Origin: a phage
Assembly: GCA_033239445.1 (NCBI GenBank)
Contig: GCA_033239445.1_3953.1
Length of the DNA stretch: 64,000 bases
Reading direction: 5' to 3' (one strand)
This document shows, piece after piece, positions 287-22,856 of the stretch; position 1 is the first letter of the stretch, and every line of letters begins with the position of its first letter. A program made the translations under genes and the position numbers. A model generated the notes under the pieces. It searched no databases, was not told where the DNA came from, and worked only from the letters and a program-made list of their open reading frames with translations.

Positions 287-292
287 ATTGTT

Positions 293-368: not shown

Positions 369-375
369 ATTAATT

Positions 376-795: not shown

Positions 796-808
796 CCTAA
801 TAAGACTT

Positions 809-891: not shown

Positions 892-1056
892 ACTATATTT
901 CGAAGCTTACCCTGTTATCTCAACACTGTCAAGCTTCTTCTCAGATTATTTACATGTTCTGGAAAACATGAGATACAGACCACCTCCTTATGAGATTGAC
1001 TCTTTCAAGTCAATGCGGAGACCCATAAAGGTCGTCGTAGTAATCTGCTAACTATT

Positions 1057-1177: not shown

Positions 1178-1185
1178 ATTAAAAT

Positions 1186-1262
1186 TGGCACACCCTACAG
1201 GATTCGAACCTGTAACTGACGGTTTAGAAGACCGTTGCTCTATCCGTTTGAACTAAGGGTGC
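1186..1262 (-). tRNA. tRNA-Arg (anticodon TCT)
   Basis: Minus strand; encoded CCA, acceptor acaccct/agggtgc, T-stem acagg/cctgt, anticodon stem acggt/accgt with loop CTTCTAA. Confidence 0.8.
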
Positions 1263-1510
1263 ATTATCTTTAAAGGCTCTCTTAGAAAACCCTTAAAGAT
1301 GCCCACTTTATTAATCATACCGTGGGCTAGTACGCCAAATTCTTTAACAGGGAGTTGGAATACCCTGCTGGTGTTTAGCCTATTAAGCTACTGCCAGAAA
1401 AACATTATCGTTTGCATTTATTTTTAAGTTTTTAAAATAGACGCTACGCTAACGAAAACTAAGGTTATCTTAAAGTGGTCACATCTGAATGTCAACAACT
1501 TTATGAAATT

Positions 1511-1586
1511 TGGTACTGGTAGGTGGAATCGAACCACCGATATTCCCTTATCAGGGGAGTGTTATAACCTTCTTAACTATACCAGC
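1511..1586 (-). tRNA. tRNA-Ile (anticodon GAT)
   Basis: Minus strand; encoded CCA, acceptor actggta/taccagc, T-stem ggtgg/ccacc, anticodon loop CTGATAA. Confidence 0.8.
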
Positions 1587-1588
1587 AT

Positions 1589-1665
1589 TGGAGGTTCAGG
1601 TGGGAATCGAACCCACATTCATAGGGCTTATGAAACCCTTGCATTACCTTATCTGCGACTGAACC
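1589..1665 (-). tRNA. tRNA with anticodon CAT (elongator Met or Ile2-type)
   Basis: Minus strand; encoded CCA, perfect acceptor ggttcag/ctgaacc, anticodon stem agggc/accct with loop TTCATAA; fully paired 1:72 argues against an initiator. Confidence 0.75.
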
Positions 1666-1746
1666 ATTATAAGTTGCCCCTTTGTAGAGAACTGATTGAG
1701 TGGGTGTTTCCAGCCGCGCATGTGTTCTTCAGTTAAGGGGCGAATT

Positions 1747-1822
1747 TGGTAGAAGTGGAGGGATTCGAACCCGTCGCCTGTCAGATTAAAAGTCTGCCGC
1801 ATCACCATTCTGCTACACTTCC
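1747..1822 (-). tRNA. tRNA-Lys (anticodon TTT)
   Basis: Minus strand; encoded CCA, acceptor agaagtg/cacttcc, anticodon stem tcaga/tctgc with loop CTTTTAA. Confidence 0.75.
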
Positions 1823-2024
1823 ATTAAATCATCTTTGCAGTAACCTACGCAAACCTTGCTAAAGGGTTTGTAGAGTCATCTCTTATAAGCTAATCTAGAA
1901 TCATGCTCAAGAGACTCTTCGGCACTCATGGGACGACTGGTTAGCTCCATAAGTCACTGCAAAGAGGATTACCAGACCGTATTTATCTTAAGTGCTTCCA
2001 TTACACCAACACGCCGTAACGTGT

Positions 2025-2041
2025 GAAGGAATCGAACCTTC
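2025..2041 (-). other. orphan T-arm-like hairpin (gaagg-aatcgaa-ccttc) with no complete tRNA around it
   Basis: Perfect 5-bp stem and TTCGATT-type loop on the minus strand, but no matching acceptor or anticodon arm within 90 nt; flanked by spacer motifs A and B. Confidence 0.3.
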
Positions 2042-2077
2042 GCCTTTTCTTTACCAGAGAAATAGATTGTTTATTGT

Positions 2078-2118
2078 TTGCTGTAAACGGTCTTCTGTAA
2101 AATTGTTGGAACCAGACC
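2078..2118 (-). repeat. tRNA-cluster spacer motif A (TTGCTGTAAACGGTCTTCTGTAAA) followed by motif B (ACCAGACC)
   Basis: Motif A recurs at 2166-2185, 2622-2645 and 2785-2804; motif B recurs at 1971-1978, 2575-2582 and 2735-2742. Confidence 0.6.
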
Positions 2119-2165
2119 AAGTTTTAAATTTTTCAAATTAAATTGGCTTGAAATATTAAAATTGC

Positions 2166-2185
2166 TTGCTGTATTTGGTCTTCTG
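2166..2185 (-). repeat. tRNA-cluster spacer motif A copy
   Basis: ttgctgtatttggtcttctg; same core as the other three copies. Confidence 0.6.
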
Positions 2186-2246
2186 CTCCTTTAAAGAATA
2201 CTCGTAAGAACTCTTTAAGGGAGGGGCTAAAAAGCCCTCTCAAATT

Positions 2247-2323
2247 TGGCGGTTACGAAGGGATTCGAACCCTCATCATCCTCCGTGACAGGGAGGTATT
2301 TTGACCAGTTAAACTACATAACC
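2247..2323 (-). tRNA. tRNA-Asp (anticodon GTC)
   Basis: Minus strand; encoded CCA, acceptor ggttacg/cataacc, anticodon stem cctcc/ggagg with loop CTGTCAC. Confidence 0.8.
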
Positions 2324-2329
2324 TTTATT

Positions 2330-2417
2330 TGGTGCGCCGTGAAGGAGTCGAACCTCCCGAGTCATAATGACAAGTGATTTACAGTCACCACCGCTTCCAT
2401 CTACGGGATAACGACGC
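2330..2417 (-). tRNA. tRNA-Tyr (anticodon GTA), class II
   Basis: Minus strand; 88 nt with long variable arm, encoded CCA, acceptor gcgccgt/acgacgc, anticodon loop CTGTAAA. Confidence 0.75.
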
Positions 2418-2486
2418 ATTTTATTCTATTCAGGCTAAGGACTTGCACCTTACAAATCGGTGAGCAATCGCTTCTCTCCCAAATCT

Positions 2487-2563
2487 TGGCGGTTAGTCAG
2501 GGATTCGAACCCTGTACCATTCGGTTAACAGCCGACCGCACATGCCTTATGTGCTTCCTAACC
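2487..2563 (-). tRNA. tRNA-Asn (anticodon GTT)
   Basis: Minus strand; encoded CCA, perfect T-stem caggg/ccctg, anticodon stem tcgg/ccga with loop CTGTTAA. Confidence 0.75.
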
Positions 2564-2574
2564 ATGTTAGTATT

Positions 2575-2645
2575 ACCAGACCGTATCTTTTCATTTTTTG
2601 CCTATAAAAAATTTTAAGTGTTTGCTGTAAACGGCCTTCTGTAAA
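2575..2645 (-). repeat. spacer motif B (2575-2582) plus motif A (2622-2645) between tRNA-Asn and the CAT-anticodon tRNA
   Basis: On the minus strand motif B reads TGgTAATAC, an extended -10-like element ending about 6 nt before the tRNA-Asn 5-prime end. Confidence 0.5.
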
Positions 2646-2647
2646 TT

Positions 2648-2724
2648 TGGAGGCGGGTGTAGGAGTCGAACCTACCGATAACATGCTAATGAGACATGTG
2701 AGACACCCTTTCTCTATACCCGCA
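2648..2724 (-). tRNA. second tRNA with anticodon CAT, atypical
   Basis: Minus strand; encoded CCA, perfect T-arm gtagg/cctac, D-stem GAGA/TCTC, anticodon loop CTCATTA (pyrimidine at 37), apparent U1:C72 mismatch. Confidence 0.5.
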
Positions 2725-2734
2725 ATTCTTAATG

Positions 2735-2804
2735 ACCAGACCAAATCTTTTTTGGATTTCTATGCGCGAAATTGAAAAGTTTGTTTGCTGTAATTGGTCT
2801 TCTG
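2735..2804 (-). repeat. spacer motif B (2735-2742) plus motif A (2785-2804) between the CAT tRNA and tRNA-Glu
   Basis: Same A and B cores as the other copies. Confidence 0.5.
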
Positions 2805-2811
2805 TCAAAAC

Positions 2812-2889
2812 TGGCATTCCCGAAGGGACTTGAACCCTCAAACCACACCTTGAAAGGGTGTTGACTTTACCTAATTTGTCTACGGGAAT
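2812..2889 (-). tRNA. tRNA-Glu (anticodon TTC)
   Basis: Minus strand; encoded CCA, perfect acceptor attcccg/cgggaat, anticodon stem acacc/ggtgt with loop CTTTCAA. Confidence 0.8.
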
Positions 2890-2895
2890 ATAATT

Positions 2896-2975
2896 TGGTC
2901 TCCGTTGAAGGATTTGAACCTTCGACCCCTTGCTCCCAAAGCAAGTGCTGCTAAACCAAACTGAGCTAAACGGAG
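2896..2975 (-). tRNA. tRNA-Pro (anticodon TGG)
   Basis: Minus strand; encoded CCA, perfect acceptor ctccgtt/aacggag, anticodon stem cttgc/gcaag with loop TTTGGGA. Confidence 0.75.
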
Positions 2976-11870: not shown

Positions 11871-12326
11871 ATGAGTTTAAAATTGAAAGAAGGTCAGAAA
11901 GTTGTCGTTGTTGATTATGCCACAAAGACCGTGATGGCAAAAGGTGAAGTCACTGAGATATACACTTCAGCAGCATACCCTATCGCTGTAAGGATTGACA
12001 ACTCCTTTGTAAAAACCTGCTGTGATGAGGATATGCCATTTCAATCTGGAGAACGCTTAACATTCAATAGTGAGTATCTGTTTCGTGGTAAACATCATAG
12101 CTCACATAATGATTTTGATTTAGAAGTTCTCTCTGAGGAATACTATAACAGAGTTTACCTTGAAAGAGTCTCAAGCACTTACAAGTATCTGATGGATTCC
12201 TTCTTAAAAGAAGCTGTAAAGGTTTCTGAAGATGTAGATAAAGCAATTGCTTTGTTGATTCCACACATCAAGTCTGGTAAATTATCTGTAGAGGCAGTTA
12301 AAGCACTTATTGAGGAAAATCTATGA
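11871..12326 (+). CDS. hypothetical protein
   Basis: 151 aa ORF. Confidence 0.5.
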   Translation: MSLKLKEGQKVVVVDYATKTVMAKGEVTEIYTSAAYPIAVRIDNSFVKTCCDEDMPFQSGERLTFNSEYLFRGKHHSSHNDFDLEVLSEEYYNRVYLERVSSTYKYLMDSFLKEAVKVSEDVDKAIALLIPHIKSGKLSVEAVKALIEENL

Positions 12327-12619
12327 CTCCACAATCCAGAGGCGTTAAAGGTATCCATCCTCCAAAGGGTGGTTGGAAAGATAACACTTTCTACATCGTT
12401 GAAGTTGCTTACAAGCCACTTAACATGATTCATAAAGCGATGTTCTACACAGGGTTCTGTGATGATAACGGTGTACCTGCTGGTTACAACTGGCTTATGA
12501 ATGGTGGTTATGAAGAACTTTGCAGTATTCAAGAAGCTTATTACTTGAAAGCTATTGCAGAGTTACCTGATGAGTTTCAAATTGAGAGAGATGAGGATTG
12601 GAGAGATGAAGAATGTTAA
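12323..12619 (+). CDS. hypothetical protein
   Basis: 98 aa ORF. Confidence 0.45.
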   Translation: MTPQSRGVKGIHPPKGGWKDNTFYIVEVAYKPLNMIHKAMFYTGFCDDNGVPAGYNWLMNGGYEELCSIQEAYYLKAIAELPDEFQIERDEDWRDEEC

Positions 12620-13040
12620 AGAGACAGTACGCAAAGCTATGCTTAACAACGGTACTAAAGATGATATGTACAAAGATATCGTTGCAGAACTTGGTTGCTC
12701 AAGACATGCTGCAAAGGTTCTTCTCCATAGCTTTATCTGGGAGTGTTCAGAAGCTTACATGCAATCTGTAATAACTGAAGGGCTTGATATGTCTCTACCT
12801 GAACGCTTCAAAGAAGAGACTAAGGCTAGTTCCATAAAGCTAAACACACTCTATATTGTAGAAACCGTTGATACAGGTGAACCAGTAGGCACAATACATA
12901 TTGAAAGTATGTGTGATGGTAAGTTCCTCGGTTATGGTGAAGCAAACGCATATAGTGCATTCTCAACCGCACACTGGATAGTTGAAAATGATGGGTATAT
13001 TCAGGTCAATGGTAAAAATACTTTCAAACTTAAGATGTGA
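12606..13040 (+). CDS. hypothetical protein
   Basis: ORF-track frame 12555-13040 trimmed to ATG at 12606. Confidence 0.45.
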   Translation: MKNVKETVRKAMLNNGTKDDMYKDIVAELGCSRHAAKVLLHSFIWECSEAYMQSVITEGLDMSLPERFKEETKASSIKLNTLYIVETVDTGEPVGTIHIESMCDGKFLGYGEANAYSAFSTAHWIVENDGYIQVNGKNTFKLKM

Positions 13041-13708
13041 TTATGGGACACCTACTGAAGAAGAGTTGGAAGAACTTAACAGATATGGTTCCCCATCTGA
13101 AGAGGAAGAGAAAGAACTCCGAAGAATGGGAAGCAATTACTAAGAAATGCTTTAAGGATTTGATAGAGATGAAAAAGTTTAAACTTGAAAGAAAGTATCT
13201 GGTACTTAGCCTAGATGATATCAACACACATCTTGATGAAAGTGAGAAGTGGTCTTTAGACTTACTTGTTAATCGACTTAAGATGGAACGAGAAGATTCA
13301 GGTAAAGAGCCACTTGAAGGTGTCTTTGTCAAGAAGTCTTATCCGTTCTTTGAAGATACTTTGAAGAAACTTGAGATGTATGTTAAGCAGCAGAACCGTA
13401 AAGAGTTCTCTATGATTTCTCTTGGTGGACAACAAATGCTGGTTATGGAAGATATAAACCCTAAGAGAACCAACAAAGGTGTTTGTATCAAGGTCACAGG
13501 TAAAGAAGAATTTGTTGAATATGACATACTCAGACACATTATAGATGGTTTGGGTGTTGTACTGAACATGAATGAATACCATATTAGTTCACACCCGATT
13601 AAGGGTGACCAGATAATGATTCAGGTAAGAGAACGGCATAATGGGTTCACACACTTCTTCCAGACTTCTAAAACTTCATTGCAAGCCATGCTTAGTGAAT
13701 TGATGTAA
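13037..13708 (+). CDS. hypothetical protein
   Basis: 223 aa ORF; last gene of the plus block. Confidence 0.55.
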   Translation: MIMGHLLKKSWKNLTDMVPHLKRKRKNSEEWEAITKKCFKDLIEMKKFKLERKYLVLSLDDINTHLDESEKWSLDLLVNRLKMEREDSGKEPLEGVFVKKSYPFFEDTLKKLEMYVKQQNRKEFSMISLGGQQMLVMEDINPKRTNKGVCIKVTGKEEFVEYDILRHIIDGLGVVLNMNEYHISSHPIKGDQIMIQVRERHNGFTHFFQTSKTSLQAMLSELM

Positions 13709-13716
13709 GACTATAC

Positions 13717-13740
13717 AGCCCCTTAATTGGGGCTTTTTAT
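13717..13740 (+). terminator. rho-independent terminator
   Basis: agcccc-ttaatt-ggggct hairpin followed by TTTTTATT. Confidence 0.6.
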
Positions 13741-15224
13741 TGAGTAAAATTTACGAAATTTATAATTTTTATAAAATTTGGGATTCACTCCGTTCATCTT
13801 GGGTCACCATGATATGTGATAAAATATCTATACCCTTCTAAACACCCTCTCTAAGCATCATCTCTATATAGTATTATATAGTATTATATAGTATCTATAT
13901 AGCCTCTTAGTCCCTAAATAGTGCTCTCTATATAGCCCTCTATAAAGCCTTCTAAGCCTACCATTAATCAACCCTATACAATCACCTTCCTAACCTCTTC
14001 CTAGCCCCTTAGAAGCCCCTATACTCATCTTAATCTCTAGGTAAACGATAGTACCCTATATAGCAGAATCACTAGGTATTACTAAGCCTCTATATAGACT
14101 GTTATATAGCACTAAACAGGTATTCCCTGTAAAGGCTTATCCTACAAGGTCTAACACGGTACTAACAAGGTCTCTTATAAGCCTGTTAATTCCTGTTTTA
14201 TATAAGATAGTGTATAGATAGTTATTCAGAATTATAAAATTTTTATAAAATAGACTAGGTAGGTTACTTTTTAGGGTCTTTGGAGAATCTGAAAAATATC
14301 TACAGAGGATGTATATCTGCTTGGTAGCCCTTAACAGCCCTGTAACATCCCCTTTGCAAAATCTTAAAATATCATTAACAATCTCTTAACAACTCTTCCA
14401 AGTCCTTAACATCTCTCCAGAGTTCTTAACAGTCTCTTAACAGAACTAACAAGAGCTTAACAAGTCTGTAACATTACTAACAAGAGTCTAACAAGTTGCT
14501 TATAAGTTGCTAAATAGTTAAATCTTAAGAGTTATTTTGTTAAGATAATTAACAAGTTCTAAACCTTTTTAACAAGCTATTAACATGGTCACTATCTCTT
14601 GGTCTATAGTTCCTTATCCTTTCTTAGTGATTCTCTATAAAGCCCTGTATAGCTCTGTATAGCCTCTTCTAAGATTCTCCCTAGTAACTACACCCCAACT
14701 ACCTGTATAGCTCTTTGTAGGGCTTTCTAGGGGCTTATACAGGGACTTCAAAGAGTCTAACAAGCTCTTAACATACCACTAACAAGGATTTAACAAGGGG
14801 CTAACAAGCATAACTATGTTGCATTTGTTAAGATTTTGTTAAGAGAATGTAAAGGGGGCTAACTTTTACGTTACTTTTAAGCTCTTTTTAGACTCCATAA
14901 CATACTTTGAAGTAACTATCAAGCCCCTGTTTAACCATTCACAAGATTCTATCCAGCTTATAAGCTTATACCCTTATAAGATTCTTTTAAGGCTCTAGAA
15001 AGCTCTATAAAGGGTTTTTAAGAAGTGGTTAATATGATTGCTTAAGATGAGATGATAAGCCCGTATAGAGCGTTATAGAGCGTTTTAGGGATTGCCCTTC
15101 CCTTTCGGGTTATGGGCTTATATTTAAGTTGATTTGATAAGAGGATATAGAGTAAGCTATAGAGTTATTATTCTAAATGTATGGGATAGATTCTAGGAAG
15201 GTTTCTTTATAGACGTAAAAAGCC
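13741..15224. repeat. 1.5-kb non-coding region rich in short direct repeats (tattatatag x3, CTGTATAGC copies, about 15 YTAACAAG copies, tatagagcgt x2)
   Basis: No ORF of 60 aa or more on either strand; lies between the 3-prime ends of convergent gene blocks. Confidence 0.6.
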
Positions 15225-15250
15225 CCATCTAAGGGGCTGTAAAGGTGTCT
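15225..15250 (-). terminator. rho-independent terminator (minus strand)
   Basis: On the minus strand agcccc-ttagat-ggggct followed by TTTTTA. Confidence 0.55.
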
Positions 15251-15279
15251 GGGGCTATTTGCCCCGTTGCGGCGACTTG

Positions 15280-15531
15280 TTAGTTATTGAAGCCGTCAAC
15301 TTCATAGTAAAGCGTGATAAGAGAATCACCCCAATAGTAAGAGGATTTACCATCCTTTAAGACTTCTTGTTTTACTTCTTTCCAGAACCACTCAGATTGA
15401 TTGTAGTCCTGAATAGTTGCTTTTAGACACATATCAACCATGCCAAAAACATCGCCAGTTCCAACCATATCAAATTTAACATCTAATACATGGAAGCCAA
15501 AATTGTTAACAGTTGCGTGGATAGTAGCCAT
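15280..15531 (-). CDS. small hypothetical protein (small-gene array)
   Basis: 83 aa; ATG preceded by conserved leader CCTAAACTGGAGAATCTGAAA with SD GGAGA. Confidence 0.55.
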   Translation of the reverse strand: MATIHATVNNFGFHVLDVKFDMVGTGDVFGMVDMCLKATIQDYNQSEWFWKEVKQEVLKDGKSSYYWGDSLITLYYEVDGFNN

Positions 15532-15596
15532 TTTCAGATTCTCCAGTTTAGGAATTTAGGTTAGTGGGGAAGTCTCCCTCCCCGTTGAAAGTAATA
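15532..15596 (-). promoter_or_regulatory. conserved leader cassette, type II (GC-rich hairpin plus shared SD leader)
   Basis: ggggaagtctccctcccc hairpin followed on the minus strand by AACCTAAATTCCTAAACTGGAGAATCTGAAA-ATG. Confidence 0.5.
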
Positions 15597-15860
15597 TTAA
15601 TTCATTGCTGCATAAGTTGCAAGTCTTTTTTCATTGTATTTTGTAAGAATCTCACAAGATAAAACGTCATACTTTGCAACGGCTTCAGATTTAGTTAAAC
15701 CGAAATGGCTTACAATTTCACCATTCATGAATCCGACTACTTCATAAGATTCTGCGATGATTTCACCGTTGAACCAATCACTTTCAATACGTTTGCAAAG
15801 TTGGATATCTTCTTTGTCAGTACCGATTTGTAACAGGATAGTGATTTCTTGATTATTCAT
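15597..15860 (-). CDS. small hypothetical protein (small-gene array)
   Basis: 87 aa; conserved leader upstream. Confidence 0.55.
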   Translation of the reverse strand: MNNQEITILLQIGTDKEDIQLCKRIESDWFNGEIIAESYEVVGFMNGEIVSHFGLTKSEAVAKYDVLSCEILTKYNEKRLATYAAMN

Positions 15861-15920
15861 TTTCTAGTCTCCAGTTTAGGATTGTTGGGGAAGGTCATTC
15901 CCTCCCCGTTGATAAGTACT
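15861..15920 (-). promoter_or_regulatory. conserved leader cassette, type II
   Basis: ggggaaggtcattccctcccc hairpin plus CCTAAACTGGAGA leader. Confidence 0.5.
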
Positions 15921-16448
15921 TTATAGATTTGTGATGATTTCGTCAAGGGAATTTTCTAAGTTTTTTAAAGATTGTTCGTAAAGCCTAATTCCCCTATTTA
16001 ATGCTTCCCCTAACGTAATTTTAAAATTAGTTGTTGGGTAGTCACTTGTAAAGATGTTTTCCACTTCATAGAGTGGGTATTGTTGGTTACCCGTTCCCAT
16101 AGCATACATGCCTGTATAGTGGATTGCAATAAAAAGATTATGGGACTTAATAGAGCGCTCATAAGCCATTTTAAAGCGGTTTAACTCGTTTTTAGTTGCC
16201 TTAATAGCCATTTCGTGAATTTCTGCGACTATAGCCATATAATCATTCAGAATAAGAGAAATAGCCCCCATAAAGTTGTTGGCTGTTACCGCTTTTACAT
16301 TTGGTCGGTGTACATAAAACTTCTTACCTTCCCCTTTTGTGATAACTGCAAAAACTTTGCTCTTTAAGGTAAATTCCCAAGTATCTTTACAAGGCTTGCT
16401 CATCACTTCACGGCTACGGATTGCATTAACAGTATTAAACTTATTCAT
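15921..16448 (-). CDS. hypothetical protein (small-gene array)
   Basis: 175 aa; conserved leader upstream. Confidence 0.6.
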   Translation of the reverse strand: MNKFNTVNAIRSREVMSKPCKDTWEFTLKSKVFAVITKGEGKKFYVHRPNVKAVTANNFMGAISLILNDYMAIVAEIHEMAIKATKNELNRFKMAYERSIKSHNLFIAIHYTGMYAMGTGNQQYPLYEVENIFTSDYPTTNFKITLGEALNRGIRLYEQSLKNLENSLDEIITNL

Positions 16449-16512
16449 TCTAGATTCTCCAGTTTAGGAATTTTGTTTAGTGGGGAAGTCTCCCTCCCCG
16501 TTGATGAATACT
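16449..16512 (-). promoter_or_regulatory. conserved leader cassette, type II
   Basis: ggggaagtctccctcccc hairpin plus CCTAAACTGGAGAATCTAGA leader. Confidence 0.5.
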
Positions 16513-16653
16513 TTACTTGTTTTGATTCTGCATTGCAAGTAGTTTTTTATCAAAAAGTTTATCTGAGATTTCACCAATGATGAGCATTGCTAATGGCAAC
16601 ACAACAGAAACAATCATACCGCAAAGGATAGGGTTTTTAATGATATCTAACAT
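16513..16653 (-). CDS. small hypothetical membrane protein (46 aa)
   Basis: Below ORF-track cutoff; ATG preceded by CCTAAACTGGAGAATCAC leader; C-terminus LAMQNQNK identical to that of 20006-20353. Confidence 0.4.
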   Translation of the reverse strand: MLDIIKNPILCGMIVSVVLPLAMLIIGEISDKLFDKKLLAMQNQNK

Positions 16654-16849
16654 TTAGTGATTCTCCAGTTTAGGAAGTTGCCTTTTGAAGATACTATATA
16701 GATATGATTAGACCTTTGCAAGTACTTTTTACGCTTATCTATAAAGAATCTATTAAGTTAATCCCTTTTAGATAAACCCCCTCGAACAAAGTTACACTTG
16801 TCAAGGGGCATTGTCAATAGTTTTTCAAAAGATTTTTATAAGTTGTTGA

Positions 16850-17191
16850 TTAGCTTATAAAGATTTTTTCTGGCTTAACATAGGTTAATGACTGTTTTTT
16901 AAGCAAATCAGACCAAATGAGCGCGGCAATGTGACTATATCCCTTTTCTCTTAACTCCTGCATAGCTGATTTGCGAGTTTCGAAACGTGTAGCATAGTAT
17001 TCAGTGTTAAGGGTAGTTTTATTCCCTTCATTGTCAACATGTACAATCTGCATCACTTGAAACGGGCTTACATCTTCTCCCCTGTTCCATTGCTCAAAGT
17101 ACTTGAGACACTGCATAGGTTTCATTTTGTCGTTAACTTGGGTAGACCATGACGAATTTTCTTTATCGGTGATAATTGTTACATAGGCCAT
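16850..17191 (-). CDS. hypothetical protein (small-gene array)
   Basis: 113 aa; conserved leader upstream. Confidence 0.55.
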   Translation of the reverse strand: MAYVTIITDKENSSWSTQVNDKMKPMQCLKYFEQWNRGEDVSPFQVMQIVHVDNEGNKTTLNTEYYATRFETRKSAMQELREKGYSHIAALIWSDLLKKQSLTYVKPEKIFIS

Positions 17192-17283
17192 TTTTAGATT
17201 CTCCAGTTTAGGATTGTTGGTAAAGCTCTTTCTCTGGGGCTTAAGATACTAGCTTTTAAACCCCATGTAAAGCACTTTATTAG
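17192..17283 (-). promoter_or_regulatory. conserved promoter/leader cassette, type I (sigma70-like TTTACA-N17-TATCTT inside GGGG/CCCC inverted repeat)
   Basis: Minus strand reads TTTACAtggggtttaaaagctagTATCTTaagcccc ... CCTAAACTGGAGAATCTAAAA-ATG. Confidence 0.55.
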
Positions 17284-17505
17284 TTATTTGTAGTAATAGT
17301 ATGTAAAATCATTTATCAGGCTTCCAGCCTCATCGTTATACTGCTTATGACTAGCCAGATAACCGCCATTAGCTAGAATTTCATCAATCAACTTTTTAGC
17401 GTCATCGTTGGGAATTCTAACAGGGTTATTAAACGGTTGTAAATAGGTACGACGAACATTTGAGAATTTAAAATCAATGGTTTTTACGTTAAGAACTTGC
17501 AACAT
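17284..17505 (-). CDS. small hypothetical protein (small-gene array)
   Basis: ORF-track frame 17284-17583 trimmed: its first 26 codons translate the conserved leader (NNPKLEIQK); true start taken as the ATG after the SD. Confidence 0.5.
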   Translation of the reverse strand: MLQVLNVKTIDFKFSNVRRTYLQPFNNPVRIPNDDAKKLIDEILANGGYLASHKQYNDEAGSLINDFTYYYYK

Positions 17506-17583
17506 TTTTTGAATCTCCAGTTTAGGATTGTTGGGATGTTTCCCGTTGATGAATACTTTACTTTCTTGCGTTTTCAGTGTCAA
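17506..17583 (-). promoter_or_regulatory. conserved leader cassette, type II variant
   Basis: gggatgtttccc hairpin plus CCTAAACTGGAGATTCAAAAA leader. Confidence 0.45.
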
Positions 17584-17814
17584 CTACTTTTCTATAAGAA
17601 TCTCATATTCACCATTCACACTATCAAAGTAAATACCTTCATCATCTTCTGACTTATAGTAACATTGGATATCATCCGATGTTGGGTAGTCTTGCCTTGC
17701 TATCTGACAGGCAACAATAGCATTATTTTCGCTACCTGTAAACTCTTCTAAACCTTTAAAGTCACATTGTGAACCATTGCAGATAGATAAGATAAGATAG
17801 ATTGTTGTAAGCAT
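17584..17814 (-). CDS. small hypothetical protein
   Basis: 76 aa; own RBS, no conserved cassette; hairpin agccccgcacaggggct in its 5-prime region. Confidence 0.5.
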   Translation of the reverse strand: MLTTIYLILSICNGSQCDFKGLEEFTGSENNAIVACQIARQDYPTSDDIQCYYKSEDDEGIYFDSVNGEYEILIEK

Positions 17815-17877
17815 CTTTTAAGCCTCTTGTAAGCCCCTGTGCGGGGCTTTTCTAGTGAACTGGCATGATTCTATGGT

Positions 17878-18435
17878 TTATGCTGTTAATTCGTTTATAG
17901 CCGTTTCTGCTACGTTACATTGCATTGTGTCAAAGATATCACAATATACATTGCTCATCTCATCACTACGTTGGACTATTGCCGCAATGTTGCGTAATTC
18001 ATCCGGTATATAACCCAAGTTCCTATTATTCAGGTTAGGGACAAAGAAAGGCGCATACATAGCATTAAATTCAGTTGTGTAAACCTTTTTAATCCATTCT
18101 TTATCGAAATATTCTGTAAAGCTTGCTACGTCGCTCATGTTCTCACAGCTCCAGTCATCTTGTAAATCATCTTCTGGAATATCCAGTTCCAAGATAACAA
18201 GCTTTTGTGACTTCATTTGATAGGCTGCTGTAATGCTTGCGCTATCAAGCGCGTTTCTAATACCTTCATCTGTGATTTGTTCGTCATCCAGATTCTCTAC
18301 ATCATAGAACTTGTTAACAGGGTAGACGTAAAAACATCCATCCATATCAGAGCAATTCCAGACTCCTGATGGTTTATCACCGCCATTGATAAGGTTTACG
18401 AAGTTTTCTTGTGTAGTACCGTGGAAGCATTTCAT
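17878..18435 (-). CDS. hypothetical protein (small-gene array)
   Basis: 185 aa; conserved leader upstream. Confidence 0.6.
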   Translation of the reverse strand: MKCFHGTTQENFVNLINGGDKPSGVWNCSDMDGCFYVYPVNKFYDVENLDDEQITDEGIRNALDSASITAAYQMKSQKLVILELDIPEDDLQDDWSCENMSDVASFTEYFDKEWIKKVYTTEFNAMYAPFFVPNLNNRNLGYIPDELRNIAAIVQRSDEMSNVYCDIFDTMQCNVAETAINELTA

Positions 18436-18519
18436 TTTAGATTCTCCAGTTTAGGATTGTTGGTAAAGCTCTTTATCTGGGGCTTATCTTATCTAACTAT
18501 AAACCCCATGTAAAGGACT
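18436..18519 (-). promoter_or_regulatory. conserved promoter/leader cassette, type I (TTTACA-N17-TAAGAT)
   Basis: -35 TTTACA is the complement of 18509-18514, -10 TAAGAT the complement of 18486-18491, 17-nt spacer; followed by CCTAAACTGGAGAATCTAAA-ATG. Confidence 0.6.
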
Positions 18520-18768
18520 TTATTTAGTTTTCTTTGTAAAGATTAGTTTAACGGCAACAGTTGGTAACTCTTCAATACTTGTGAACAAAGTCACTTTTTG
18601 AGTCTTAACATTATAGCCATACTTTGAACCATAAGCCGTAAAACGGTTTACAATGTAACTGTAAGTTTTTGCAGTGTTATCTGGCATATGATATAAAAAC
18701 GGCTTGCCAAGGTTATCAAATTGTGTTAAGAGTCGGCAAGTGTCAGGGATATTCAACATATTAAACAT
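18520..18768 (-). CDS. small hypothetical protein (small-gene array)
   Basis: 82 aa; conserved leader upstream. Confidence 0.55.
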   Translation of the reverse strand: MFNMLNIPDTCRLLTQFDNLGKPFLYHMPDNTAKTYSYIVNRFTAYGSKYGYNVKTQKVTLFTSIEELPTVAVKLIFTKKTK

Positions 18769-18855
18769 TTTCAGATTCTCCAGTTTAGGATTGATTTAGT
18801 AAAGCTCTTTATCTGGGGCTATCTTATCAACTTGATAACCCCATGTAAAGCACTT
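18769..18855 (-). promoter_or_regulatory. conserved promoter/leader cassette, type I
   Basis: Minus strand TTTACAtggggttatcaagttgaTAAGATagcccc plus shared leader. Confidence 0.6.
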
Positions 18856-19104
18856 TTAGATGTTTTTATAACCTGCCGATGTGCATAAACCTTTTACAAG
18901 TTCAAAAGTCCATAATAAATCTTTGTATTCTATTTGAATCTCAGTTACAAGGTCTGTTTTTCGTTCGTTAGTTTTGAAATTCACTGTATACGTGTACTCA
19001 AAATCGAAATTACTTTTTATTTCCCCATACCGTCTACATTCTTTGTATACATCATCGAGAAAACCATTTTTCATCATACTTTTGAGTTGTGTTTTTGTTT
19101 TCAT
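18856..19104 (-). CDS. small hypothetical protein (small-gene array)
   Basis: ORF-track frame 18856-19176 trimmed; upstream 24 codons translate the conserved leader. Confidence 0.5.
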   Translation of the reverse strand: MKTKTQLKSMMKNGFLDDVYKECRRYGEIKSNFDFEYTYTVNFKTNERKTDLVTEIQIEYKDLLWTFELVKGLCTSAGYKNI

Positions 19105-19176
19105 CTTTTGAATCTCCAGTTTAGGGTTGTTTCGTTGTCTGATGAGTACTTTACTACTATGCTTTTGCAGTGTCAA
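19105..19176 (-). promoter_or_regulatory. conserved leader cassette, degenerate type II
   Basis: CCCTAAACTGGAGATTCAAAAG leader present; upstream part diverged. Confidence 0.4.
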
Positions 19177-19584
19177 TCAAATTTCTGAATAAATTGCGTC
19201 ACAAATTTCACGGAAAATCTCTTTTGAAAGATTACGCTGTAACCATGTTGCAAAGAAATCAGCAATTGCAAAGTTTGCATCAAAATCAACACATAGCCAC
19301 ACTTTAACAGCAAATCTAAACATTTTCAAGTCAAGTTCTTTATTCATTACTTTTGACTTTGACAGCATTTCCTTCATCTCATATTGAGCACCGTCAATTA
19401 TAGCTCCTGCTGCTACATCTTGCAAGGATTCTTTAAGCTGTTTTGTGTCTACTACTGCGCCCTGAATTTTACCGATGATATTATGTAGTGTTTCGTCTGG
19501 TGCTGCTGATGTTACAATGTTGATGCGGTTAATGGTCAAACGTGCTTTCAAAATTGCAACTTCTTTGTGATTAACATTAGTCAT
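19177..19584 (-). CDS. hypothetical protein (small-gene array)
   Basis: 135 aa; conserved leader upstream. Confidence 0.6.
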   Translation of the reverse strand: MTNVNHKEVAILKARLTINRINIVTSAAPDETLHNIIGKIQGAVVDTKQLKESLQDVAAGAIIDGAQYEMKEMLSKSKVMNKELDLKMFRFAVKVWLCVDFDANFAIADFFATWLQRNLSKEIFREICDAIYSEI

Positions 19585-19673
19585 TTTCTAGTCTCCAGTT
19601 TAGGTTAGTTTTAGATAAATCTCTTTATCTGGGGCTATCTTAGCAACTTGATAACCCCATGTAAAGCAATTTA
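19585..19673 (-). promoter_or_regulatory. conserved promoter/leader cassette, type I
   Basis: Minus strand TTTACAtggggttatcaagttgcTAAGATagcccc plus leader. Confidence 0.6.
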
Positions 19674-19946
19674 TTAGACTAAATACAATTTTTTACCACT
19701 AACAATAATGTAACTTACGCCGCTATTACTGTAAACATCTTGATAAATTCTGCGTAACTTTCCAAGGTATCGAACTTTCCAAGATGTAGGAATTTTCTTT
19801 CCATATCCTGTGGCGGTTTTTTGTAAACCTGCTACTTGCCAATCTAATAGGTGCTGTTCTGCTCTTAACTCTTCAAAGTTTAATACACCGTCTATATAGT
19901 GTTTTAAAGTTACGTTCAAAGTTCGACCGTCATTAGTAGTATACAT
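19674..19946 (-). CDS. small hypothetical protein (small-gene array)
   Basis: 90 aa; conserved leader upstream. Confidence 0.55.
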   Translation of the reverse strand: MYTTNDGRTLNVTLKHYIDGVLNFEELRAEQHLLDWQVAGLQKTATGYGKKIPTSWKVRYLGKLRRIYQDVYSNSGVSYIIVSGKKLYLV

Positions 19947-20005
19947 TTTCAGATTCTCCAGTTTAGGATTGTTGGGGCTTCTATCTTGCCCCGTTGATGA
20001 ATACT
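19947..20005 (-). promoter_or_regulatory. conserved leader cassette, type II
   Basis: ggggcttctatcttgcccc hairpin plus CCTAAACTGGAGAATCTGAAA leader. Confidence 0.5.
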
Positions 20006-20353
20006 TTACTTGTTTTGATTCTGCATTGCAAGCTCTTTTTTATTAATTTCTTGCGCTATCACGATATAATAATCTTTCAGGTTTATATCTTGAATTGACT
20101 CAAGAAGTATGTCATAATCACTGATTAATTTAAAATCACCGTCTAGGATGTTATCAATCCGGTATGTTTCTGCTTTGAATCGAAAGCTCATCTCTAAGCG
20201 TTTCAATTGTTCTAAGCTTAAACGCTCTAGAAAGCCCCGTACAAGGTTTATTTTTAAATCCCTTGTAAGTGCCTTATTAGCTATACTGTGCGCTTGTAAG
20301 GCTTTATAGAGCGCCACAATAGAGATAAAAATTGCAACGTATGTGATTAACAT
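20006..20353 (-). CDS. hypothetical membrane protein
   Basis: 115 aa; N-terminal hydrophobic helix; second gene of a two-gene unit with 20347-20643. Confidence 0.5.
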   Translation of the reverse strand: MLITYVAIFISIVALYKALQAHSIANKALTRDLKINLVRGFLERLSLEQLKRLEMSFRFKAETYRIDNILDGDFKLISDYDILLESIQDINLKDYYIVIAQEINKKELAMQNQNK

Positions 20354-20643
20354 TTGTTTTTACCTTTGTGGAATAGTTTACCAGTGTGACTAATTTCATA
20401 TGAATCAACCATATCTCTAGTGGTCTTAATCGATGACTTATTAGTGTTATCATAGATATCAACCTGAAGCAATGGTTTTTTGTATTCTTTACAAAAGTTC
20501 CATACACAAATTATTACTTCCTTTTTGTTAATCTTTCCATGATACCACTCTACGGCTTCAGATGTACGGCGCATAGATTCAATGAATTGGATATTACTTA
20601 ATAGCTGGCTTAATTTAGTTCTAACGTTTGCGGCAATAAACAT
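20347..20643 (-). CDS. small hypothetical protein (small-gene array)
   Basis: 98 aa; conserved leader upstream. Confidence 0.55.
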   Translation of the reverse strand: MFIAANVRTKLSQLLSNIQFIESMRRTSEAVEWYHGKINKKEVIICVWNFCKEYKKPLLQVDIYDNTNKSSIKTTRDMVDSYEISHTGKLFHKGKNKC

Positions 20644-20727
20644 TTTAGATTCTCCAGTTTAGGATTGTTTGTAAAGCTCTTTATCTGGGGCTATCTTATC
20701 AACTTGATAACCCCATGTAAAGCACTT
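20644..20727 (-). promoter_or_regulatory. conserved promoter/leader cassette, type I
   Basis: Same TTTACA-N17-TAAGAT core inside GGGG/CCCC repeat plus leader. Confidence 0.6.
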
Positions 20728-21240
20728 TTAGATATTAAAGATATTCATAACAGAATCTTTCAAGGCTTCTAAACGTTCCATTACTTCAGATTCTCCATCG
20801 GAGTTCGACACTTCCTCTTCTAATCGTGAATCTAAATCTTCCCCGTCAAGATAGCACCAATCGAAGCCATAAGCAAGAGAAAAGCTATTTAATACTGTAT
20901 TACCTTCTTTATCTTCTACCTTTGCAAATAGCACGTAGCTGTTAGCCTCTAAATCTCTTTGTAATTCATCTTGTAAGCTCTTGTAAGCCTCTATAGATGG
21001 ATTTTCGCGGCCTTGTTTAGCATAATCACTCATCAATTGTGAAAGGCTGTAATGCTGTGGAATTGCATATTTGTACCCGTTACGCTCTGGATTTTTAAGT
21101 TTGATTGTAACCCCGCCTTTGTGCTCATCGGTAAACTTCCAATTCTCCACACAATGGGATGCTTCACAAATATTAACAGCTTCATAGATGATAGTGAATT
21201 TTTCTTTTTGGACTTCAAAGGTAGCTTCAACAAAATTCAT
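20728..21240 (-). CDS. hypothetical protein (small-gene array)
   Basis: 170 aa; conserved leader upstream. Confidence 0.6.
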   Translation of the reverse strand: MNFVEATFEVQKEKFTIIYEAVNICEASHCVENWKFTDEHKGGVTIKLKNPERNGYKYAIPQHYSLSQLMSDYAKQGRENPSIEAYKSLQDELQRDLEANSYVLFAKVEDKEGNTVLNSFSLAYGFDWCYLDGEDLDSRLEEEVSNSDGESEVMERLEALKDSVMNIFNI

Positions 21241-21331
21241 TTTAGATTCTCCAGTTTAGGACTATTGGTTAGTAAAGCTCTTTATCTGGGGCTTATATTA
21301 TCTAACTATAAACCCCATGTAAAGCACTTTA
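21241..21331 (-). promoter_or_regulatory. conserved promoter/leader cassette, type I (TTTACA-N17-TAATAT)
   Basis: Minus strand TTTACAtggggtttatagttagaTAATATaagcccc plus leader. Confidence 0.6.
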
Positions 21332-21589
21332 TCAGATTAAATTGTCAGTTAATGATAAGTGCATTTTATAACCTTTCTTCGTGTAGACGTTAGTTCTACC
21401 GATTGCTTTTACACCTTTGAAAAGGTCATAGGAACTACGTTTTAAAGTAATTTCCTTATCACATTTTACGCCCCATCTTACAGCAGATTCTTTTCCGTTG
21501 TCAACCACTTTACCATTTAGTTTTTTAGCAGTTGCGCGAGCGTCATCACGAGATTTTGCAGATACAATGATGTTTTTGATAGTAGCCAT
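21332..21589 (-). CDS. small hypothetical protein (small-gene array)
   Basis: 85 aa; conserved leader upstream. Confidence 0.55.
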   Translation of the reverse strand: MATIKNIIVSAKSRDDARATAKKLNGKVVDNGKESAVRWGVKCDKEITLKRSSYDLFKGVKAIGRTNVYTKKGYKMHLSLTDNLI

Positions 21590-21680
21590 TTTTGATACTC
21601 CAGTTTAGGTTATTGTTTGGTAAAGCTCTTTATCTGGGGCTTATCTTATCTAACTATAAACCCCATGTAAAGGACTTTAT
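21590..21680 (-). promoter_or_regulatory. conserved promoter/leader cassette, type I
   Basis: TTTACA-N17-TAAGAT core plus CCTAAACTGGAGTATCAAAA leader. Confidence 0.6.
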
Positions 21681-22061
21681 TTAGTTAATTTTGAAAACTG
21701 TAACGTAGCCGTCACTACCAATAGTTTGAGATACTCCAGCTTTCTCTACATCATACCCCATTTTATCAAGATGGTACATTGCATCTTCATACCCATATTT
21801 ACCGCCTTGATAGCGTCTTTTTTCACAGCGTATCACAGTTTTACCACGTCCTGCAATAGCATTTATTATAGCTTTTTCACCGGATAGTGTACCGTCAAGC
21901 ATAGTAGCTTTGTAGTGGTTAATACGGTTACCATTAACATCATACTTAAAATTGTAAGCGTGAACAACAATTATTTTTCCTTTGAAGTTTTCTTTCATAG
22001 TTTCCTCTAAGATACTACGAAAGTTTTCTTTGTTGATAAATTTAGGCGCACGATATTTCAT
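21681..22061 (-). CDS. hypothetical protein (small-gene array)
   Basis: 126 aa; conserved leader upstream. Confidence 0.6.
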   Translation of the reverse strand: MKYRAPKFINKENFRSILEETMKENFKGKIIVVHAYNFKYDVNGNRINHYKATMLDGTLSGEKAIINAIAGRGKTVIRCEKRRYQGGKYGYEDAMYHLDKMGYDVEKAGVSQTIGSDGYVTVFKIN

Positions 22062-22145
22062 TTTAGATTCTCCAGTTTAGGATTGTTGGTAAAGCTCTTT
22101 ATCTGGGGCTTAAGATACTAGCTTTTAAACCCCATGTAAAGCACT
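22062..22145 (-). promoter_or_regulatory. conserved promoter/leader cassette, type I
   Basis: TTTACA-N17-TATCTT core plus leader. Confidence 0.55.
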
Positions 22146-22352
22146 TTAAACGTTATAATAATAAATTGCTGTATGCCTTGTAAACTGTCTTGTATGAGTT
22201 GTCAAATAACAATCAGACCTGATTGACGTATCAACATATTCATCAAAATCCTTTTCTGAGATACGTTGCCAAACATCACAAATTAGCATATAGAAACGAC
22301 GTTTATTTGTTTTGTTGTTGTCAACAATCATTAACTCACGTTGATATAACAT
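22146..22352 (-). CDS. small hypothetical protein (first gene of the array)
   Basis: 68 aa; conserved leader upstream. Confidence 0.5.
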   Translation of the reverse strand: MLYQRELMIVDNNKTNKRRFYMLICDVWQRISEKDFDEYVDTSIRSDCYLTTHTRQFTRHTAIYYYNV

Positions 22353-22410
22353 TTTTAGATTCTCCAGTTTAGGATTGTTGGGATGTTTCCCGTTGATGCA
22401 AATACTATAA
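22353..22410 (-). promoter_or_regulatory. conserved leader cassette, type II variant
   Basis: gggatgtttccc hairpin plus CCTAAACTGGAGAATCTAAAA leader. Confidence 0.45.
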
Positions 22411-22603
22411 GACTGGATTTATGAAGTCAACAAAATTTTTAAAAATATTTTCGATGCTTCGTGAATAGAACGCACGTATGCGAATACACTAAAACAGAAA
22501 TCTAGTCAAGAATTATTTTTCAGTTCTCTACAAATTTTTAGCTTGACTTTTAGGAGGAAGGGGAGTAAGAGGGGATGGTGGGTCTGGCTTCCTACAGCTA
22601 CCT

Positions 22604-22815
22604 GCCTGCACAATTTGAAAATGAATTTTCCCTTTGGAGTCCAACTGCATCTGCACAAATTGAAAATGAAAAAGCTCTTTGGAGTCTAGACCTGCACGTT
22701 TTGAAAATGAATTTTCCCTTTGGAGTCCAGCTAAAGAAATCTGTCCAGAGTTCTACAAAATAATACCTGCACAAATTTGAAATGAAAAAGCCCCCCTTAC
22801 CTGAGATTTAAAACT
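22604..22815. repeat. four imperfect tandem direct repeats of about 45 bp
   Basis: Units at about 22604, 22644, 22690 and 22774 share CTGCACAA(A)TTTGAAAATGAA ... CTTTGGAGTC; non-coding region between the small-gene array and the macro-domain gene. Confidence 0.6.
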
Positions 22816-22856
22816 CAAACTTTGGAGGGCTTGTCTATATTTATCTAGGTGACTTA

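Follow-up and report, generated by a model that had tools for sequence, protein, structure and literature searches.

Promoter early stem-loop (PeSL) cassettes, which were defined and tested in T4-like phages (PMC2839356; PMC4122927), are the closest described counterparts of the elements analyzed here, namely the repeated cassettes that precede nearly every gene of a 7-kb minus-strand array of small open reading frames (ORFs) in a 64,000-nucleotide stretch of phage DNA (GenBank assembly GCA_033239445.1, contig GCA_033239445.1_3953.1), the whole of which is hereafter called the window. Promoter and terminator activity as well as mini-circles have been demonstrated for PeSLs (Arbiol et al. 2010, PMC2839356; Comeau et al. 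2014, PMC4122927), and in the cassettes of the window promoter activity is predicted from the sequence. A first, sequence-only reading of the window had noticed the resemblance, and it agrees feature by feature with the published definition (PMC2839356): an intergenic repeat of ~60-100 bp with a sigma70-like early promoter (16/16 cassettes here), a G-run/C-run stem-loop with G-U pairs that lies between -35 and -10 elements, over the -10 or after it (14/16 here), an extent from the stop codon of the upstream gene to the Shine-Dalgarno sequence and ATG of the downstream gene, clustering in a hyperplastic region of orphan ORFs (here 15.5-22.4 kb of the 64-kb window), and insertions and deletions between relatives that are bounded by cassettes. 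The differences are that the phage here belongs to the Ounavirinae and is not T4-like, and that no sequence is shared with published PeSLs, so that the claim is one of working like a PeSL and not of membership by descent; that a near-invariant 12-nt leader core is present here and not described for PeSLs; that the stem of one cassette class is lengthened to 21 bp by flanking complementary 12-mers; and that one 7-kb array is found within the 64 kb seen, in comparison to several hyperplastic regions. By their layout the cassettes are PeSL-like, in a subfamily in which they had previously not been recognized as such. We put at about 0.7 the probability that the block is a hyperplastic early-gene array of a Felix O1-like myophage composed of PeSL-like, self-contained gene units.

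In such an array each unit would consist of a host sigma70-type promoter, a G/C-clamped stem-loop and a fixed 5' leader together with its gene. As DNA, the cassette would start transcription of its own gene, and in read-through RNA its stem-loop would attenuate, process or 3'-stabilize the upstream message. Comparison of the genomes shows, in addition, that the near-identical 30-90 bp around every gene are a substrate for homologous recombination, by which units of gene plus cassette are deleted, inserted and occasionally re-inserted elsewhere, mostly via crossovers in the leader, and that cassette copies convert one another within a genome.

Three other systems share part of this arrangement. 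The start-associated sequence (SAS) of cluster K mycobacteriophages, described together with its extended form (ESAS), is a 13-bp asymmetric repeat, GGGATAGGAGCCC, located 3-7 bp before the start codon (Pope et al. 2011, PMC3203893). Common to it and the present leader are a short asymmetric repeat containing a Shine-Dalgarno sequence, found in one orientation upstream of the ATG of varied non-structural genes and conserved beyond pairing with 16S rRNA, and an upstream inverted repeat in about half of the copies. The likeness is one of analogy only, as the sequence (GGGATAGGAGCCC in comparison to CCTAAACTGGAG here) and the distance from the ATG (8-10 nt here) differ; furthermore, the arms of the ESAS show no covariation as RNA and were suggested to be protein-binding DNA, whereas the arms here covary with U·G pairs, and every cassette here has a sigma70 promoter. 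The RNase III signals of the T7 early region are likewise hairpins of ~20 bp that are interrupted by an internal loop and separate small early genes, and after cleavage the upstream mRNA would end in a 3' hairpin; this geometry fits only the type I cassettes described below. T7 sites are, however, without an internal promoter, and the type II hairpins here are too short. Finally, the host-takeover module of Bacillus phage SPO1 consists of densely clustered, small early genes whose functions are unknown and many of which have their own strong host-type promoter and ribosome-binding site, but to our knowledge SPO1 has not been described with near-identical repeated cassettes or cassette-bounded insertions and deletions.

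Some of these repeats have been recorded before. The Felix O1 paper lists direct repeats of 57 bp and 39 bp without interpretation and states that temporal control is unknown; we found the 57-bp repeat to be the type I cassette, while the 39-bp repeat is the promoter of type II. In the wV8 record the array bears nine annotated 'DR' repeats, which the wV8 paper does not discuss, and the Mordin announcement reports a 26-bp leader before 8 genes and likens it to the mycobacteriophage SAS (PMC4611695). In our literature search, neither a paper linking PeSLs with Felix O1-like phages nor RNA-seq of any such phage was found. New in the present analysis are a 21-bp sense-RNA hairpin with compensatory changes, homology breakpoints on the cassettes, two to three displaced units, and concerted evolution of cassettes.

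Cassettes and genes of the array

The window belongs to an Ounavirinae (Felix O1-like) myophage. The array region matched 251 phage records, the names of which are almost all those of Felix O1-like myophages (Ounavirinae: Mooglevirus, Suspvirus, Felixounavirus). None of the 251 records matched the region end to end, and the best covered 44-81% of it at 80-97% identity, which indicates that the region is a mosaic. In Felix O1 the counterpart of the array is the block of ORFs 15-23, located downstream of the genes for rIIA/rIIB, the spanins and the macro-domain 'phosphatase'; in the window, the rIIA/rIIB–spanin–macro-domain genes lie upstream of the array on the same strand. The array contains 18 ORFs of 46-185 amino acids at 15280-22352, minus strand, numbered W2-W19 in gene order, with terminators at both ends (22785-22831; 15216-15238). 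The span had been given as 15280-22410, the start of which stands, while the upper limit moves to ~22430 when the first promoter is included.

The 12-mer CCTAAACTGGAG, here called the leader core, has 16 exact copies in the window, all on the minus strand, all within 15541-22373 and all 8-10 nt upstream of an ATG, whereas dinucleotide-preserving shuffles averaged 0.35 copies and never exceeded 3; a second motif, TTTACATGGGG, has 8 copies, every one inside the array. Neither the leader 12-mer nor the type I core was found outside the array within the window. The leader stands before 16 of the 18 ORFs, the exceptions being W13 and W7, which is translationally coupled to W6. The array of about 18 small cassette-led genes was thus borne out, as was the number of eight type I cassettes, but the earlier count of 15 cassettes has to be raised to 16, with eight rather than seven of type II. 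When one type I cassette was used as query, 1,497 places were found in 288 phage records, almost all named as Felix O1-like phages, including Erwinia Kolesnikvirus, with four under other names.

In type I the layout is stop codon-AAAGTGCTTTACA-T-GGGGTTTAT…(loop)…ATAAGCCCC-AGATAAAGAGCTTTAC-(5-15 nt)-CCTAAACTGGAGAATCTAAA-ATG, with the promoter part TTTACA-N17-TAAGAT/TAATAT/TATCTT. The -10 had been given as TAAGAT or TAATAT, which applies to five copies and one copy, respectively, with TATCTT in the other two; the GGGG…CCCC inverted repeat noticed in this class is present, but the true repeat is far longer, at 21 bp. In type II, one of TTGACA, TTGCAA, TTGACG or TTGACT is followed by N17 and by TAAAGT, TATAGT, TAATAT or TAGTAT, after which come a conserved 10 nt, AyTyATCAAC, a GGG(G)…(C)CCC hairpin and the leader common to all. 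The suggestion that type II had a GC-rich hairpin instead of a promoter was wrong, since all eight have a sigma70-like N17 promoter upstream of the hairpin, and the hairpin itself is G/C-clamped in six of the eight and missing before W10 and W16. The -35 elements of the W8, W17, W18 and W19 cassettes lie inside the 3' end of the preceding ORF. A type III layout occurs before W19 in three relatives, with the hairpin wholly within the spacer, TTGACA-AGGGGCTTCAAAGCCCC-TACTAT. The hairpin thus covers the spacer and the -10 in type I, lies 10 nt past the -10 in type II, and sits in the spacer in type III.

The cassettes and genes, all on the minus strand, are as follows.

22353..22430, minus: type II cassette of W2, first array promoter; -35 TTGACT 22425-22430, -10 TAGTAT 22402-22407, hairpin GGGAAACATCCC 22380-22391, leader core 22362-22373
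22146..22352, minus: W2, 68 aa, unknown function (phrog_5293, E 2e-39)
22062..22147, minus: type I cassette of W3; long hairpin 22091-22147, -35 TTTACA 22135-22140, -10 TATCTT 22112-22117, leader core 22070-22081
21681..22061, minus: W3, 126 aa (phrog_4495)
21590..21678, minus: type I cassette of W4; hairpin 21622-21678, -35 21666-21671, -10 TAAGAT 21643-21648, leader core 21598-21609
21332..21589, minus: W4, 85 aa (phrog_5089)
21241..21330, minus: type I cassette of W5; hairpin 21274-21330, -35 21318-21323, -10 TAATAT 21295-21300, leader core 21249-21260
20728..21240, minus: W5, 170 aa, Felix O1 ORF16 family (phrog_4190; Felix O1 ortholog)
20644..20728, minus: type I cassette of W6; hairpin 20673-20728, -35 20716-20721, -10 TAAGAT 20693-20698, leader core 20652-20663
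20347..20643, minus: W6, 98 aa (phrog_4401)
20006..20353, minus: W7, 115 aa, without cassette, 7-nt overlap with W6 (phrog_4375)
19947..20031, minus: type II cassette of W8; -35 TTGCAA 20026-20031, -10 TAAAGT 20003-20008, hairpin 19974-19992, leader core 19956-19967
19674..19946, minus: W8, 90 aa (phrog_3436)
19585..19672, minus: type I cassette of W9; hairpin 19617-19672, -35 19660-19665, -10 TAAGAT 19637-19642, leader core 19593-19604
19177..19584, minus: W9, 135 aa (phrog_4327)
19105..19176, minus: type II cassette of W10, without hairpin; -35 TTGACA 19171-19176, -10 TAAAGT 19148-19153, leader core 19114-19125
18856..19104, minus: W10, 82 aa (phrog_23636)
18769..18856, minus: type I cassette of W11; hairpin 18801-18856, -35 18844-18849, -10 18821-18826, leader core 18778-18789
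18520..18768, minus: W11, 82 aa (phrog_9030)
18436..18521, minus: type I cassette of W12; hairpin 18465-18521, -35 18509-18514, -10 18486-18491, leader core 18444-18455
17878..18435, minus: W12, 185 aa, candidate ADP-ribosyltransferase fold
17584..17814, minus: W13, 76 aa, without leader, preceded by hairpin GCCCCGCACAGGGGC and ribosome-binding site AAGAGG (phrog_4640)
17506..17583, minus: type II cassette of W14; -35 TTGACA 17578-17583, -10 TAAAGT 17555-17560, hairpin 17533-17544, leader core 17515-17526
17284..17505, minus: W14, 73 aa (phrog_10118)
17192..17278, minus: type I cassette of W15; hairpin 17222-17278, -35 17266-17271, -10 TATCTT 17243-17248, leader core 17201-17212
16850..17191, minus: W15, 113 aa, Felix O1 ORF21 family (phrog_4318)
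16654..16721, minus: type II cassette of W16, without hairpin; -35 TTGCAA 16716-16721, -10 TATAGT 16693-16698, leader core 16663-16674
16513..16653, minus: W16, 46 aa, hydrophobic peptide (phrog_7482)
16449..16538, minus: type II cassette of W17; -35 TTGCAA 16533-16538, -10 TAAAGT 16510-16515, hairpin 16482-16499, leader core 16457-16468
15921..16448, minus: W17, 175 aa, Felix O1 ORF22 family (phrog_4725)
15861..15946, minus: type II cassette of W18; -35 TTGACG 15941-15946, -10 TAAAGT 15918-15923, hairpin 15887-15907, leader core 15869-15880
15597..15860, minus: W18, 87 aa (phrog_7022)
15532..15622, minus: type II cassette of W19; -35 TTGCAA 15617-15622, -10 TAATAT 15594-15599, hairpin 15566-15583, leader core 15541-15552
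15280..15531, minus: W19, 83 aa, Felix O1 ORF23 family (phrog_4559)

The unrelated proteins W7 and W16 (115 and 46 amino acids) share the C-terminal peptide LLAMQNQNK* because the -35 and spacer of a type II promoter are embedded in their last codons; in other phages this tail is altered in concert, for example to LAIKNQNK or LAKANQNK. The spacer between W15 and W16 is unusually long, at 196 nt, and has a second promoter-like site, TTGACA-N17-TAACTT, at 16789-16817, which is overlapped by an imperfect hairpin, CCCCTTGACAAG…CGAGGGGG then TTTAT (spacer part 16722-16849), that could be a weak internal terminator. Far from the array, at 47722-47764 on the minus strand and inside a coding region, TTGACT-N17-TAAAGT-ACTCATCAAC has the -10 and the 10-nt downstream motif as in type II, without hairpin and leader, and this site may be an internal promoter of the type II class.

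Promoter, leader and hairpin of the cassettes

An unbiased sigma70 scan with N17 spacing detected all eight type I sites and five of the type II sites. The type I loops were aligned with MAFFT from 33 distinct hairpin regions of 12 phages (alignment A1); the TTATC…GATAG class was put out of register by A1, and the stems were also checked separately in Python. TTTACA was invariant across the 33 variants and the spacer was 17 nt, or 18 in three variants. The loop was free to vary, its sole invariant positions being T24, A25 and T29, which correspond to the first, second and sixth bases of the -10, the most conserved positions of that hexamer. In type II the coding spacer changes synonymously between phages while both hexamers are retained, and the GenBank record of phage AYO145A annotates two type II sites of the array as promoters. 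Independent early transcription of the array genes is predicted, the one experimental observation in its favor being a crude reverse-transcription PCR (RT-PCR) of Felix O1, in which array ORFs 16, 20, 21 and 22 peak 5 min after infection. The TAAAGT at the type I 5' edge was also considered as the -10 of a further upstream promoter and rejected, as no -35 was seen 16-18 nt upstream (two copies, by eye); it is the outer hairpin arm.

The leader, (t)CCTAAACTGGAGAnTCnAAA-ATG, carries the ribosome-binding site. Its conservation was examined in 17 genomes, namely the window and 16 relatives. The exact 12-nt core was found at 168 of the 186 leader sites, with conservation rising from 85% to 93-100% at the core edges. 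Only GGAG can pair with the anti-Shine-Dalgarno sequence; an extended pairing of the leader or 5' untranslated region (UTR) with E. coli 16S rRNA was rejected, the longest duplex, 7 nt, being equal to the shuffled median. In the Erwinia phages of this subfamily every copy bears another core, CCCTTAyAAAGGAATC. The element CCTAAACT could be fixed as recombination homology, as the site of a trans-acting factor, or both. The second possibility can be carried further, to a leader that is an essential SAS-like element for a nuclease or RNA-binding factor encoded by phage or host, comparable to T4 RegA/RegB, which would switch translation of the gene set jointly and leave promoter and hairpin secondary. 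The exactness and sharp edges of the core, the pairing of GGAG alone with no 16S complementarity beyond chance, the lineage-wide replacement in Erwinia phages and the comparison with SAS already made in the Mordin announcement (PMC4611695) all speak for such a factor. However, no candidate factor was identified, gene conversion together with selection for recombination homology could equally maintain the conservation, GGAG sites are also found in 30% of the window's other genes, and a leader factor would supplement the PeSL-like explanation and not replace it; as the principal account we consider it unlikely.

Each type I cassette contains one interrupted 21-bp hairpin, which extends from the upstream stop codon to ~+16 of the cassette's own predicted transcript and is made of an outer stem (AAAGU/GCUUU), a middle stem (CUUUA/UAAAG), a 2x2 loop (CA/GA) and an upper stem (UGGGGUUUAU/AUAAGCCCCA). 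It folds with an energy of -25.5 to -27.4 kcal/mol, with z values of -3.6 to -5.1. Pairs were counted in a second alignment, A2, of 46 distinct cassettes from 12 phages, spliced and gap-free, with the apical loops swapped for an AAAA linker that keeps the stems in register. The results showed that 96.3% of the A2 cells were paired, in comparison to 89.5% after shuffling (0/500 shuffles reached the observed value) and 32-57% when the 3' partners were slid. Two-sided changes were found at four pairs, including G-C to U-A in eight sequences, in counts that overstate the number of independent events because cassette copies are related by descent and conversion. The outer stem of the W9 cassette is a compensatory variant, AAAUU/GAUUU, Erwinia phage copies have a compensatory GGUG/CACC in place of GGGG/CCCC, and U·G wobbles are conserved at two type I positions. 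The mean upper stem was 9.24 bp on the sense strand in comparison to 5.09 bp on the opposite strand and 7.87 bp with arms permuted (0/2000 reached it), so that the selected structure is that of the sense-strand RNA. Since the predicted type I start (the A after CCCC) is inside the 3' half of the hairpin, the hairpin would form only in read-through transcripts; the own 5' UTR of type I genes is unstructured (z +0.7). The type II hairpin starts 10 nt past the -10, that is, 2-3 nt from the predicted 5' end, and a 5'-terminal stem-loop at such a position protects E. coli mRNAs from 5'-end-dependent decay; by this analogy, type II hairpins may protect their mRNAs. A search of the array against Rfam gave no family at the gathering threshold or at E ≤ 1, with two weak miRNA chance matches, and the whole window gave tRNAs only.

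The hairpin also bears on the question of whether the array is a single operon, transcribed from the first promoter at ~22402-22430, in which the cassettes are RNase III-type processing or stability hairpins like those of T7 and the hexamers are incidental. T7 R-sites are RNase III substrates of the size class of the type I hairpin, whose 21 bp with a 2x2 internal loop amount to about two helical turns; the conserved U·G pairs indicate selection at the RNA level, the hairpin is possible only in read-through RNA, and TTTACA is partly base-paired in the stem. Against a single operon, the loop positions that do not vary coincide exactly with T1, A2 and T6 of a -10 at a spacing of 17-18 nt that never drifts, types II and III keep their hexamers beside hairpins that, at 4-7 bp, RNase III would not accept for lack of length, a promoter without a hairpin is found in two cassettes, and PeSLs of the same layout are proven strong promoters (PMC2839356). 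We regard the single operon as improbable. Processing and promoter roles can coexist, and processing may be an additional role of the cassettes, as the type I hairpin is RNase III-sized in read-through RNA.

A more ambitious form of the PeSL-like reading would have type I dual-coded, its 60 nt acting in DNA as a strong early promoter and in read-through RNA as a 21-bp hairpin for attenuation or for processing of the RNase III type, so that each gene would be both insulated and released from its upstream neighbor, while the invariant CCUAAACU upstream of GGAG would be recognized by a trans-acting factor (a small RNA, or a factor like RegA/RegB) that controls the early set post-transcriptionally, with the consensus co-evolving per lineage. 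Such co-evolution would explain the different core of the Erwinia phages, but the scheme as a whole is speculative, and we think it probably does not hold in full.

Alternatively, the 12-mers TAAAGnGCTTTA, one on either side of the type I promoter, might be DNA operators at which a dimeric phage repressor ends early transcription, since each is near-palindromic and they are centered at ~-37.5 and ~+9.5, over the -35 and the transcript start. The variants, however, lose the self-symmetry of the 12-mer and keep the complementarity between the two: AAATTG occurs with GAGATTT in 13 of 14 AAATTG cassettes (8/46 distinct A2 sequences), AAAATG is paired with GAATTTT, and the conserved U·G pairs are meaningful only in RNA. 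The palindromic-operator reading was rejected on these grounds, and its probability is very low.

Gain, loss and conversion at the cassettes

Comparison of cassette-flanked gene content across the 16 relatives showed that gain and loss occur at cassettes. The array has 9 genes in Felix O1, 18 in the window and 19 in 3HA14. Between the window and 11 relatives, 54 of the 81 interior ends of homology lie within 15 nt of a leader, in comparison to 11.3 ± 3.1 (maximum 24) for random placement in 5000 trials. Counted as distinct clusters, 19 of 30 breakpoints are at the leader and most of the others are 35-69 nt off, several of them at the stop-codon edge of the cassette; the two farthest clusters, 89 and 258 nt from the leader, are inside genes. 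Where a unit is missing, the downstream gene bears the cassette type of the upstream one, as in II:W11 I:W12 to II:W12, II:W14 I:W15 to II:W15, and II:W2 I:W3 to II:W3, which is the pattern predicted for a crossover in the shared leader.

A few units are found in different slots. Among the 17 genomes, the W10 unit is present only in the window and wV8, between W9 and W11 in the former and after W13 in the latter, and the unit x22 is between W14 and W15 in 3HA14 and between W16 and W17 in ESh22. The displaced copies of both have 65-66% amino acid identity between slots, retain their downstream type I cassette and adopt the resident upstream cassette; a third displaced family, x9, is more distant (41% identity). 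In addition, Felixounavirus arrays (wV8, AYO145A, DaR-2019a, radambza, Alf5) have a second, shorter W8 paralogue after W9, which is a duplication within the array. The gene set had been called shuffled, which is too strong, since the order is collinear in 17/17 genomes, two to three families are displaced, and the rest of the variation is presence or absence of single units.

The clear case of concerted evolution is the promoter pair of W8 and W17, whose cassettes share an identical 40-nt stretch in the window. These copies, 3.5 kb apart, are 99.2% identical within a genome in comparison to 87% between genomes, which shows ongoing gene conversion. For type I cassettes the concerted signal was weak overall: copies in one genome had an identity of 0.863, and between genomes the value was 0.883 when the copies were orthologous and 0.846 when they were not.

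Apart from the linker used in A2 and the common descent of the cassette copies, both of which temper the pairing counts, several points weigh against the array being one of PeSL-like units. The sigma70 scan was barely enriched over the region as a whole, with 42 sites in comparison to 30 ± 5 in shuffles, so that the promoter argument rests on position and conservation and not on the scan. TTTACA is also in the middle stem, and its invariance is therefore not independent evidence for a -35. In the Felix O1 RT-PCR, ORFs 17, 19 and 23 of the array peak at 25 min. The cassette hairpins were rejected as canonical intrinsic terminators, as they are without a U-tract, the sequence after them being AGAUAAAG or AACAAUCC. 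With gene order mostly constant, mobility is rare in the 17-genome sample. Finally, we infer promoter use, start sites, timing and hairpin function in this phage from the sequence comparisons described above.

The least probable account is that the repeats are selfish miniature mobile elements, similar to miniature inverted-repeat transposable elements, without a role in expression; many copies and lineage-specific consensus sequences would suit it, but it is scarcely credible for repeats that are in a single orientation, always exactly between stop and start codons, end in a ribosome-binding site at fixed spacing, have no transposon-type terminal inverted repeats, no target duplications and no copies elsewhere in the 64 kb, and are conserved across a subfamily.

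Array boundaries, gene content and significance

The two ends of the array are marked by the following features.

22785..22831, minus: intrinsic terminator 3' of the macro-domain gene, AGCCCTCC…GGGGGGCT then TTTTT; equals Felix O1 t13
15216..15279, minus: array end, a decayed cassette CAACGGGGCAAATAGCCCCAGACACCTTTACA and then an intrinsic terminator AGCCCCTTAGATGGGGCTTTTT

The terminator at 22785-22831 insulates the array from transcription upstream, and the array-end terminator (15221-15238) was the sole site listed in a minus-strand terminator scan of the array region. Between the macro-domain gene terminator and the first array promoter, at 22605-22791, are four copies of a unit of ~42 nt (CTGCACAAATTGAAAATGAA…TTTGGAGTCC, plus strand) at spacings of 45, 41 and 75 nt. 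Records of relatives annotate a small plus-strand ORF at this locus; the 41-nt spacing, not being divisible by three, speaks against a coding repeat. Beyond the other end, 13708-15280 is 1.5 kb without an ORF, between convergent terminators at 13711-13739 and 15216-15244, and is dense in short repeats (TAACAAG/CTTGTTA in 11-bp phase; CTATATAG/CTGTATAG). Felix O1 has an equivalent gene-free gap at 12305-13928, and the repeat-rich gap could serve as an origin, for packaging, or as an array of sites for a binding protein. At 48-2975, minus strand, 16 tRNA genes are clustered, an arrangement typical of Felix O1-like phages.

All 18 array proteins match a different PHROG each, over their full length, and all of these are of unknown function; a Pfam search with the 18 proteins gave nothing above threshold. 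For W12, whose homologues are confined to Felix O1-like phages, an ADP-ribosyltransferase-like fold was indicated with moderate confidence, with pertussis toxin, DarT and PARPs also among the matches. Foldseek ranked the same fold first, not significantly, and a PDB sequence search with W12 gave no match. The invariant residues H5-G-T, Y36 and E83 are compatible with an H-Y-E-type site. W12 as a putative ADP-ribosyltransferase is a lead, and the only support for the host-takeover content that had been expected of the array. A protein identical to W12 is on record as 'hypothetical protein [Escherichia coli]'.

In general, the PeSL-like reading would extend the PeSL principle past the T4-like phages: regulatory cassettes double as recombination sites, and small accessory genes are swapped ready to be expressed. 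It would supply an interpretation for repeats that were listed in three genome papers or records, and it makes promoters that lie within RNA hairpins a subject for testing. The cassette may also offer a compact natural module of promoter and 5' UTR for engineering Felix O1-like phages. For these phages, a large subfamily in therapeutic use, the cassettes would provide a map of the entry and exit points of accessory early genes, with relevance to host range, takeover and counter-defense.

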